DNA from: a virus
DNA: 64,000 nt
Virus record (IMG/VR): IMGVR_UViG_3300018080_000099
Span: 64,001-128,000 of that record
Direction: 5' to 3' (one strand)
Part shown: piece after piece, positions 18,199 through 19,212 of the stretch
Position numbering within the stretch: the first letter of the stretch is position 1
How the letters are laid out: each line of letters starts with the position of its first letter
Made by a program: the position numbers and the translations under genes
Notes under the pieces: generated by a model
The model's database searches: none
The model's input: only the letters and a program-made list of their open reading frames with translations
What the model was told of the DNA's origin: nothing

Positions 18199-19212
18199 AT
18201 GAAACCGTTAATCTTCATTCTCACCCTTTTGAGTTTCGTCTGTGGCGATACTCTGCGTGTCGGAACGTATCCTTATGCTCCCTGTGTCTTTGTCAACGAT
18301 GGCGTGCCAACCGGCTTCTCCATCGAAATCTTCGAGGAAATCGCTAAAGACATCGGGTGGGAATATAAGTATGTGTTGTTCGACAACGTAGACGAAGTTA
18401 TCACAGCTCAGAAGGAGGGAACGATTGACGTTTCAGCCGCGAGCGTAACCATCACAAGCGAACGAGAAGGCTACATTGATTTCTCTTACCCTTACTACAA
18501 CTCTGGACTGAGCATCATTGGAAGGGACAAAGCAGAGTTCAGCATCTTCTACAAAATCGGATTGTACTTTCAACGAGCTTGGAGAGGATTGCTTGCCCTG
18601 TTCATCTTCATCATTGTGTGTGGCATCATCATGTGGTTCCTTGAGCGAGGCTTCCCAAACTTCAATGATAGCTTCTGGAAAGGCACCGGGGATGGTGCAT
18701 GGTGGACCGAAGTCACCATGACAACCGTGGGATATGGCGATAAGTTCCCTCAGACCGTCAAAGGCAAAATCTTTGCTTCCTTTGTCATGTGGTTTGGAAT
18801 CGCTGTTGTATCTCCGTATGTGATTGCAGAGATGAACCAAACGCTTGCCATCATTCGGGAATCGTCCTCCGTGGACTACCTGAAGGGCAAGAAAATTGGA
18901 GTTGTGGCGAATACCACAGCTCATATAGAAGCCCGCGACCTCAAAGCCCGAGTCGTAACCGGCAAGAACATCAAAGAAGTATTTCAGATGCTTGAGACTA
19001 AGAAGGTCGATGTCGTAATGACTGACCTTCCGATGTTGAAGTATTACAGCAAGAACAATCCGGATTATGTTCTGTCAAGCACGGTGCTAAAGAAACAGGA
19101 CTACGGAATCACCTTTGAATATCTCAGTCCCTTGAGGGATGTTTTCAATAGAGAGCTTCTTCGGATGAAGGAAGAAGGAAGGTATCGTAAAATCCATGAC
19201 AAGTGGATGTAG
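18199..19212 (+). CDS. GluR0-like ligand-gated potassium channel (periplasmic binding domain split by an M1-P-M2 pore with a TTVGYGD filter)
   Basis: signal peptide; SBP_bac_3-like S1 (LRVGTYPYAP...GFSIEIF); TM; selectivity filter TMTTVGYGD; TM; SBP S2 lobe. Confidence 0.75.
   Translation: MKPLIFILTLLSFVCGDTLRVGTYPYAPCVFVNDGVPTGFSIEIFEEIAKDIGWEYKYVLFDNVDEVITAQKEGTIDVSAASVTITSEREGYIDFSYPYYNSGLSIIGRDKAEFSIFYKIGLYFQRAWRGLLALFIFIIVCGIIMWFLERGFPNFNDSFWKGTGDGAWWTEVTMTTVGYGDKFPQTVKGKIFASFVMWFGIAVVSPYVIAEMNQTLAIIRESSSVDYLKGKKIGVVANTTAHIEARDLKARVVTGKNIKEVFQMLETKKVDVVMTDLPMLKYYSKNNPDYVLSSTVLKKQDYGITFEYLSPLRDVFNRELLRMKEEGRYRKIHDKWM

Follow-up and report, generated by a model that had tools for sequence, protein, structure and literature searches.

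The stretch of DNA analysed here, referred to as the window, comprises 64,000 nucleotides (positions 64,001 to 128,000) of the IMG/VR virus record IMGVR_UViG_3300018080_000099, and contains a gene (18199..19212) for a 337-residue channel subunit of the GluR0 type, the K+-selective prokaryotic ionotropic glutamate receptor (iGluR). The explanation that we favour, and consider probable, is that a jumbo phage encodes this GluR0-type channel and uses it to maintain K+ and membrane voltage in the infected host. The phage-borne clade to which the channel belongs is new, as are a partner protein found only in phages and a PspA-containing gene block present in some lineages; the channel itself is an orthodox member of the GluR0 type. 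Here we present the features of the channel and its relatives, together with the genomic context and the readings that were weighed.

The architecture of the product is far beyond chance. From the N-terminus it consists of a signal peptide, a first clamshell half (S1), a transmembrane helix (M1), a pore helix with the selectivity filter TTVGYGD, an inner helix (M2) and a second clamshell half (S2), with the boundaries given in Table 1. Four Pfam families match, all of them above the curated cut-offs: SBP_bac_3 (6.2e-30, in two stretches) and Lig_chan-Glu_bd (1e-9, residues 38-109), and on the pore Ion_trans_2 (6.5e-12, residues 135-207) and Ion_trans (5.6e-8). Hydropathy shows an N-terminal signal (residues ~1-16) followed by two segments only, ~125-153 and ~190-215, around TTVGYGD, and no third transmembrane segment was found by this method. 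The hydrophobic N-terminus is common to all homologues of the channel. The closest solved structures are the ligand-binding cores of GluR0, 2pyy from Nostoc (5e-33) and 1ii5/1iit from Synechocystis Slr1257 (6e-21). 2pyy aligns in two domains, with residues 19-110 and 223-336, and residues 130-212 match the pore domains of Shaker/Kv channels (~1e-10).

A monomer model built with AlphaFold2 (AF2) from 62 homologues reached a pLDDT (predicted local distance difference test) of 92.3 and a predicted TM-score (pTM) of 0.78. It contains a signal helix (residues 2-14), S1 (19-108), M1 (116-149), the pore helix (159-174), the filter, M2 (187-228) and S2 (232-336). In Foldseek the whole model matched AMPA-receptor chains that span the ligand-binding domain (LBD) and the transmembrane domain (TMD), with E ~5e-21, a TM-score of ~0.55 and ~365 aligned columns. 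The original prediction, made from the letters of the window, had described a signal peptide, a bilobed SBP_bac_3-like domain split by the pore, and two transmembrane helices flanking a pore helix with TTVGYGD, in the arrangement of GluR0. Profiles, hydropathy, the predicted structure and the alignment to the GluR0 cores bear this description out; the profile searches returned a pore module as well as the binding domain, and the filter does not lie in a soluble region, the two points on which it might have failed.

The gene could also be read as a substrate-binding or transport component, or as a decaying passenger without function, a reading that we hold to be very improbable. The source annotations of homologues, 'ABC-type amino acid transport substrate-binding protein', read so, and SBP_bac_3 is the strongest Pfam match. 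An entire K+ pore module, its filter perfect, interrupts this domain, however, which effectively refutes the transport reading, and the whole-chain Foldseek matches are LBD-TMD chains of iGluRs, not soluble substrate-binding proteins (SBPs). The SBPs of ABC systems are soluble or lipid-anchored, have no pore and are accompanied by permease and ATPase genes; the phage channel fits none of these, and no permease or ATPase genes were found adjoining it.

Residue R89 is invariant in all 65 aligned sequences, and the 62 homologues share without exception R89, D276, P278, Y302, T176 and G178. Each of T84, R89, E90, T240, D276 and Y302 occurs in 12 of the 12 phage-clade sequences, and the filter reads TVGYGD in 11 of them (TVGFGD in the locus L024); almost all bacterial homologues retain TVGYGD. 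The Arg, Thr and Asp positions of the ligand site align with those of GluR0 and are conserved. We take R89, T84 and D276 to correspond to the motifs around R485, T480 and E705 of GluA2, and T239/T240 presumably corresponds to its S654/T655 motif. As the conserved positions are those that bind alpha-amino acids, the ligand is very probably an alpha-amino acid. The ratio of nonsynonymous to synonymous substitution rates (dN/dS) between phage channel copies is 0.17-0.25, with dS near saturation, and indicates purifying selection. Channel sequences that carry these invariant functional residues are only 35-43% identical, and together with the dN/dS values this excludes decay of the gene.

The TAG stop of the channel gene is genuine, judging by the alignment, in which S2 ends at the same ...KW[FM] position as in all homologues. 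Read-through by an amber-suppressor tRNA was rejected because the homologues stop at the same position; it would append 32 residues, which are not hydrophobic. TAG terminates seven of the 42 called genes in the window, the channel gene included. Reading TAG as sense lengthens open reading frames (ORFs) less than reading TGA or TAA as sense, so that there is no sign of recoding in the window. An antisense ORF of 163 codons across the channel gene (18433..18924) was judged spurious. The hairpin between the partner stop and the ribosome-binding site of the channel is without a proper T-tract on the plus strand.

GluR0 of Synechocystis PCC 6803 (Slr1257) and of Nostoc punctiforme has the same order of parts, from signal peptide and S1 through M1, the P-loop with TVGYGD and M2 to S2, and like the phage channel it has neither an amino-terminal domain nor a third transmembrane segment. 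The phage channel differs in being located on a genome of jumbo-phage type, in belonging to a clade of phages only and in its linkage to a partner gene, which the bacterial loci do not have. Its identity to any cellular homologue is only ~29-36%. K+-selective prokaryotic iGluRs form Group 1 of Ger et al. 2010 and were reported from bacteria only (PMC2950845). Of the features of this group, the split clamshell, two transmembrane segments with a pore helix, TVGYGD and the ligand-holding residues are present in the phage channel. The AMPA receptors GluA1-4 and the kainate receptor GluK2 share the LBD-TMD fold over the whole chain and likewise an inverted pore, at 18-20% identity. In contrast to these eukaryotic receptors the phage channel lacks an amino-terminal domain, an M4 helix and a cytoplasmic tail; its M2 reads FASFVMWFGIAVVSPYVIAEM, without the SYTANLAAF gate, and a K+ filter replaces the pore with the Q/R/N site. 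Despite the shared fold, it is not a member of the eukaryotic type.

Cellular homologues number at least 546 in species-representative genomes of many phyla, at 25-36% identity, and 16 large plasmids or chromids carry GluR0-type genes as well. A scan of IMG/VR with the single channel protein gave nothing, but an alignment as query recovered five full-length relatives, all unannotated, on viral contigs of 40, 119, 211, 204 and 424 kb. Four of these are copies of the phage clade, apparently from three lineages, and the fifth is L011. In IMG/VR the channel genes of the phage clade sit on viral contigs of 40-424 kb. The protein P0001, identical to the channel of the window, is encoded on contigs of 263,805 bp (ENA ERZ27256796 k141_2651556) and 264,037 bp (JGI). 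In a neighbour-joining tree the window channel, P0002-P0009 and L007 form one clade, which is nested among bacterial sequences. The public annotation as 'substrate-binding proteins' makes the class invisible in phage and plasmid annotations.

L011 (IMGVR_UViG_3300041402_000314, 204 kb) stands for another, unrelated lineage of phages and carries a GluR0-type gene with the filter TVGLGD that lies outside the phage clade. Within 7490..12547 of this contig the channel gene is placed between a large terminase (TerL, 1.9e-56), 750 bp away, and a gene for a 534-residue binding protein of the NMT1_3 type, and there is no partner gene. Because L011 falls elsewhere in the tree, phages have acquired GluR0-type genes at least twice, as far as the sequences tell. 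A weak match between the partner protein and the 534-residue protein was rejected as low-complexity noise, the latter being an NMT1_3 SBP.

Among viral proteins, the Kcv-type mini K+ channels of chloroviruses and other algal viruses, and the mini K+ channels annotated in uncultured Caudovirales, have the same pore module of two transmembrane segments and a P-loop. They are bare pores of ~80-125 residues without a ligand-binding domain, whereas the phage pore is embedded in a clamshell protein of 337 residues. In BFVD, a 114-residue phage protein with a 'potassium channel domain' and several algal-virus channels match the pore only (residues ~130-215). The sole viral match in BFVD to the whole model is E3T502 of Cafeteria roenbergensis virus (CroV), a 514-residue 'putative ABC-type amino acid transporter' (E 1e-21, TMq 0.58, 22% identity); this protein of a eukaryotic giant virus is longer than the phage channel and not close to it in sequence. 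By this overall model match, an iGluR-like protein of LBD and pore is present in a giant virus as well. A glutamate-receptor-like gene in chloroviruses found no confirmation in a review of these viruses and is not counted here. The nearest published concept is GluATCV*, in which a viral K+ pore was joined by engineering to a glutamate-binding domain (PMC6385376). It is artificial, its LBD being eukaryotic and its pore taken from a chlorovirus, whereas the phage protein descends naturally from bacterial GluR0.

The statement in the original prediction that such a channel is unusual for a phage holds. No full-length match was found in 50,697 GenBank phage records or in the phage entries of BFVD, and literature searches directed at phage and viral channels gave no paper that describes one. 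A megablast of 14-24 kb against GenBank phages gave no match. The channel is not unique, however, in view of the five IMG/VR relatives, the iGluR-like protein of CroV and the large plasmids with GluR0-type genes. The roles that the original prediction had proposed, manipulation of the membrane potential or the sensing of a metabolite, are plausible.

The gene directly upstream of the channel gene encodes a bitopic membrane protein of 245 residues, here called the partner, with an N-terminal signal or anchor, a disordered linker rich in Lys, Ser and Arg, a conserved C-terminal domain (motifs PDHIPQNV..., GGxYGYGYMDP and GYG) and a C-terminal transmembrane segment. No family in Pfam or PHROG matched it. 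It adjoins the channel gene or lies within 4.5 kb of it in seven of seven informative lineages, in three gene orders; the loci L025 and L110 are truncated. Partner and channel are directly adjacent in this order in the window and in L004-6, and in the reverse order in L026 and L027. In L003, L009 and L024, and in part in L007, the order is partner, 196-residue protein, CesT-like protein, PspA-like protein, 267-residue protein, channel. In this long module dN/dS is 0.10-0.18 for the 196-residue, PspA-like and 267-residue genes, and the CesT-like gene is saturated; no family matched the 196- and 267-residue proteins. No partner was found at 80 bacterial GluR0 loci (+/-6 kb). An exhaustive search placed the partner family at 118 clusters, nearly all of proteins of 200-300 residues, and estimates of dN/dS for the partner, available for two pairs, are 0.20 and 0.44. 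A linkage that survives rearrangement, combined with purifying selection, argues for channel and partner being a functional pair.

A bolder reading, which we regard as doubtful, takes channel and partner as a two-component receptor that evolved in huge phages and turns an amino-acid signal from outside the cell or from the periplasm into a change of host voltage, which sets the timing of lysis, immunity to superinfection or the pace of infection. The partner would then be an auxiliary subunit, with a role comparable to that of the TARPs (transmembrane AMPA receptor regulatory proteins) of AMPA receptors, and the signal would be, for example, glutamate or cell-wall amino acids from lysing neighbours. 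If this reading is true, ligand-gated electrical signalling is run by a bacterial virus, and phages are plausible vehicles for the movement of iGluR-type genes between lineages.

For the favoured explanation, a K+- and voltage-maintaining channel of a jumbo phage, the mechanism is drawn by homology with GluR0 and iGluRs. During infection the phage would make an amino-acid-gated, K+-selective channel subunit, whose N-terminus the signal peptide would export. On the outer, periplasmic side of the cytoplasmic membrane of the host, S1 and S2 would form the clamshell; an inverted K+-channel pore would consist of M1, pore helix and M2, and four subunits would assemble around the TVGYGD filter. An alpha-amino acid bound in the clamshell would pull on the linkers to M1 and M2 and so open the pore. 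The inverted topology, with the LBD and both termini outside, is predicted from the N-terminal signal peptide and the even number of membrane crossings. Experiments on Synechocystis GluR0 placed the protein in the plasma membrane and both its termini on the outside; it rescues E. coli deficient in K+ uptake and offers a passive path for K+ influx (PMC13099474). The phage channel would work together with the phage-specific partner, and in several lineages it shares a block with the PspA-like and CesT-like proteins. After a leak caused by infection, the gated conductance would let K+ re-enter the cell electrophoretically and hold the membrane potential near the K+ equilibrium potential (E_K), by which turgor, translation and the supply of counter-ions for DNA would be kept up through the long cycle of a jumbo phage.

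The same channel might serve the opposite purpose, that is, the phage would depolarise the membrane of the host, or short-circuit it, at a given signal, be it to block superinfection, to time lysis or to shut down host transport; we consider this unlikely. When lysis is timed, the channel would act as a holin-like or lysis-inhibition signal that reads amino acids from lysed neighbours. For Kcv of chloroviruses, a depolarisation of the host during entry is assumed (PMC7019647), the predicted outward-facing LBD could read external amino acids, and in several lineages the gene stands in a block with a PspA-like protein of membrane stress. A K+-selective pore, however, drives the voltage to E_K, which is strongly negative in most media, and is a poor depolariser unless external K+ is high. 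The gene is also located among accessory genes of early type with no recognisable lysis cassette beside it. Kcv is thought to act at fusion during entry (PMC7019647), whereas the virions of tailed phages lack a membrane by which a channel could be delivered on entry, and the channel would need to be expressed in the host membrane.

The genome that carries the channel has a size of ~264 kb. The window contains 47 tRNA genes, 46 of them in one array that covers nearly all anticodon families, and one suppressor tRNA with a CTA anticodon. Within the array is a homologue of Apyc1 (anti-Pycsar), a counter-defence nuclease of phages that acts on cyclic nucleotides. The DUF2828 protein has matches in 685 phage records, best in jumbo phages. 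Uracil-DNA glycosylase and HNH endonucleases are also encoded in the window, and upstream of it lambda Ea47, DUF932, DUF6011, SprT and DnaJ are scattered among dozens of tiny ORFs. The ORFs have a tiny median size; many of the small ones are co-oriented, and most ORFs are without homologues. Only generic ATPase and ATP-grasp ORFs of the window matched bacterial GluR0 loci. A tblastn search with a 439-residue protein without assignment against phages was negative.

In contrast to a phage origin, the contig might represent a large extrachromosomal element of some other kind, or part of a small genome of cellular origin, with an ordinary cellular or plasmid GluR0 gene. This we hold to be improbable, even though GluR0-type genes are found on 16 large plasmids or chromids and NCBI assigns the relative P0009 to a metagenome-assembled genome (MAG) of a Candidatus Nanoarchaeia archaeon. 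The identical protein is encoded on the IMG/VR viral contig L009 (IMGVR_UViG_3300029288_006769, 424,144 bp), from the landfill leachate well LW4 in Southern Ontario, and the archaeal label is probably a binning error by which a huge phage was mis-binned; the paper on this sample makes no mention of the channel. The sister of L009, L003 (~424 kb, channels 68% identical), has a bacterial sigma-70, an intein-split RtcB, ThyX and dUTPase. The tRNA array, the suppressor tRNA, Apyc1, Ea47, the homing HNH genes, the orphan methylases and a DUF2828 closest to jumbo phages also speak against a non-phage element, as do the tiny ORFs without homologues and the purely generic matches to bacterial loci.

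Several observations weigh against the favoured explanation. Searches with PHROGs and Pfam found no capsid, portal or terminase in the window and the 8 kb upstream of it (~72 of ~264 kb), which is also the main argument for a non-phage element, and no virion or packaging genes were found in the flanks of the phage-clade relatives, where the large ORFs of L003, L004, L007 and L024 were covered. The sole terminase beside such a channel is that of L011, which belongs to another clade and has the TVGLGD filter. Linkage of the partner could in part be synteny inherited among related phages, and the partner family, at 118 clusters, may extend beyond the channel clade. Finally, the data fit K+ replenishment and deliberate depolarisation alike. 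With no virion or packaging gene in the readable parts, the case for a phage is strong but circumstantial; we nevertheless regard the source genome as a phage with high confidence. The original claim that a phage encodes the channel is accordingly well supported, though indirectly, by the tRNAs, Apyc1, RtcB, DUF2828, Ea47, DUF932, HNH genes, orphan methylases and the location of the closest relatives on IMG/VR viral contigs, but not by a capsid, portal or terminase gene.

Assemblies made independently (ENA, Logan) are all interrupted within the tRNA array, at ~52.5-53.6 kb, for which reason the inference of a complete, circularly permuted genome was dropped as unproven. The lone tRNA with a CTA anticodon (34202..34278, plus strand; an amber suppressor, named 'Pyl' by ARAGORN) is located exactly at the strand switch and turning point of the GC skew. 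The genes for RtcB, DUF2828/DUF7788, YqeY and the RimK-type ligase represent a toolkit for RNA repair and translation.

Close to the channel, 19214..19516 (plus strand) starts 2 nt past the channel stop and encodes a protein of 100 residues with three transmembrane segments and a motif 'LIPQIVKSLK' that recalls PQ-loop/SemiSWEET carriers; Pfam gave no match, and related loci contain no homologue. The gene immediately before the partner gene, 17142..17384 (plus strand), has a strong ribosome-binding site and encodes a very hydrophobic, Gly-rich membrane protein of 80 residues that is not conserved in related loci. Both were rejected as parts of the module, as neither has a homologue in any related locus. 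The cluster of four membrane-protein genes is flanked by two divergent radical-SAM genes (16179..17060 and 19666..20559, plus strand), the second of which is followed by a calcineurin-like phosphoesterase (20559..21233, plus strand). In L004-6 the partner-channel pair is immediately preceded by an ABC operon (NMT1-OmpA SBP, permease, ATPase). A 177-residue ABC-ATPase fragment of the window (9967..10500, plus strand) shares 67% identity with the C-terminal portion of the complete ATPase in this operon and looks like a remnant.

Table 1. Features of the channel gene, its surroundings and related loci (positions refer to the window unless a locus is named)
Feature	Position	Strand	Evidence or remark
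PnuC-like nicotinamide riboside/NMN transporter (NAD-salvage pair)	4160..4720	+	
NadR-like adenylyltransferase/kinase (NAD-salvage pair)	8903..9880	+	
Partner gene, 245-residue bitopic membrane protein	17421..18158	+	Homologues close to the channel gene at all related phage loci
Intergenic hairpin GGGGAG-N8-CTCCCC	18165..18184	+	Between partner stop and channel ribosome-binding site
Shine-Dalgarno AAGGA of channel gene	18188..18192	+	6 nt before ATG; from sequence
GluR0-type K+-selective channel subunit gene, 337 residues	18199..19212	+	ATG start, TAG stop 19210-19212; ORF, Pfam, PDB, AF2, Foldseek
Signal peptide, residues 1-16, MKPLIFILTLLSFVCG	18199..18246	+	Hydropathy; AF2 helix 2-14
S1 clamshell half, residues 17-115, TITSEREGYIDFSYPY motif (T84, R89, E90, D94)	18247..18543	+	Pfam; alignment to 2pyy domain 1
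M1 transmembrane helix, residues 116-149	18544..18645	+	Hydropathy, AF2
Pore helix, residues 159-174 (...GAWWTEVTM)	18673..18720	+	AF2 secondary structure; Ion_trans_2
K+ selectivity filter TTVGYGD, residues 175-181	18721..18741	+	Located with hydropathy profile
M2 inner helix, residues 187-228, hydrophobic core ~190-215	18757..18882	+	Hydropathy, AF2
S2 clamshell half, residues 229-337, with T239/T240, D276, Y302	18883..19209	+	Alignment to 2pyy domain 2
YqeY	24909..25391	+	
N6/N4 DNA methyltransferase 1	27721..28659	+	Tandem, overlapping with next; no visible restriction partner
N6/N4 DNA methyltransferase 2	28656..29447	+	No visible restriction partner
RtcB ligase	30860..32209	+	55% identical to intein-containing RtcB of 424-kb relatives
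DUF2828/DUF7788 'RNA-binding' protein	36988..38460	-	
Hsp20 chaperone	39431..39916	-	
RimK-type ATP-grasp ligase	43894..45294	-	
N6/N4 DNA methyltransferase 3	45762..46697	-	No visible restriction partner
Array of 46 tRNA genes	47442..63912	-	Nearly all anticodon families; interspersed with HNH endonucleases and other genes
Cpn10/GroES-like chaperone	48883..49197	-	
Apyc1 anti-Pycsar homologue in tRNA array	52500..53312	-	PF23023, 107.6 bits against a cut-off of 50
PTH2 in tRNA array	56533..57039	-	
B12-binding radical-SAM gene in tRNA array	57812..59131	-	
DnaJ-domain protein just upstream of window	L022 494..808		
Long module	L003 6648..11038; L024 4236..9520; L009 1926..6340		CesT_Tir_1-like chaperone, PspA/IM30-like protein

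To our knowledge, the repertoire known from phages contains no ligand-gated ion channels, and the known viral K+ channels are bare pores of algal viruses. The present data suggest that some huge phages control the K+ flux or the membrane voltage of infected cells. A compact, K+-selective homologue of glutamate receptors that is under selection in huge phages would show that phages control the ion balance or the voltage of the host in dependence on a chemical signal. It would also supply a minimal and probably easily expressed iGluR prototype, together with a candidate natural auxiliary subunit, for studies of structure and gating, and viruses would join the routes for the spread of iGluR-type genes.

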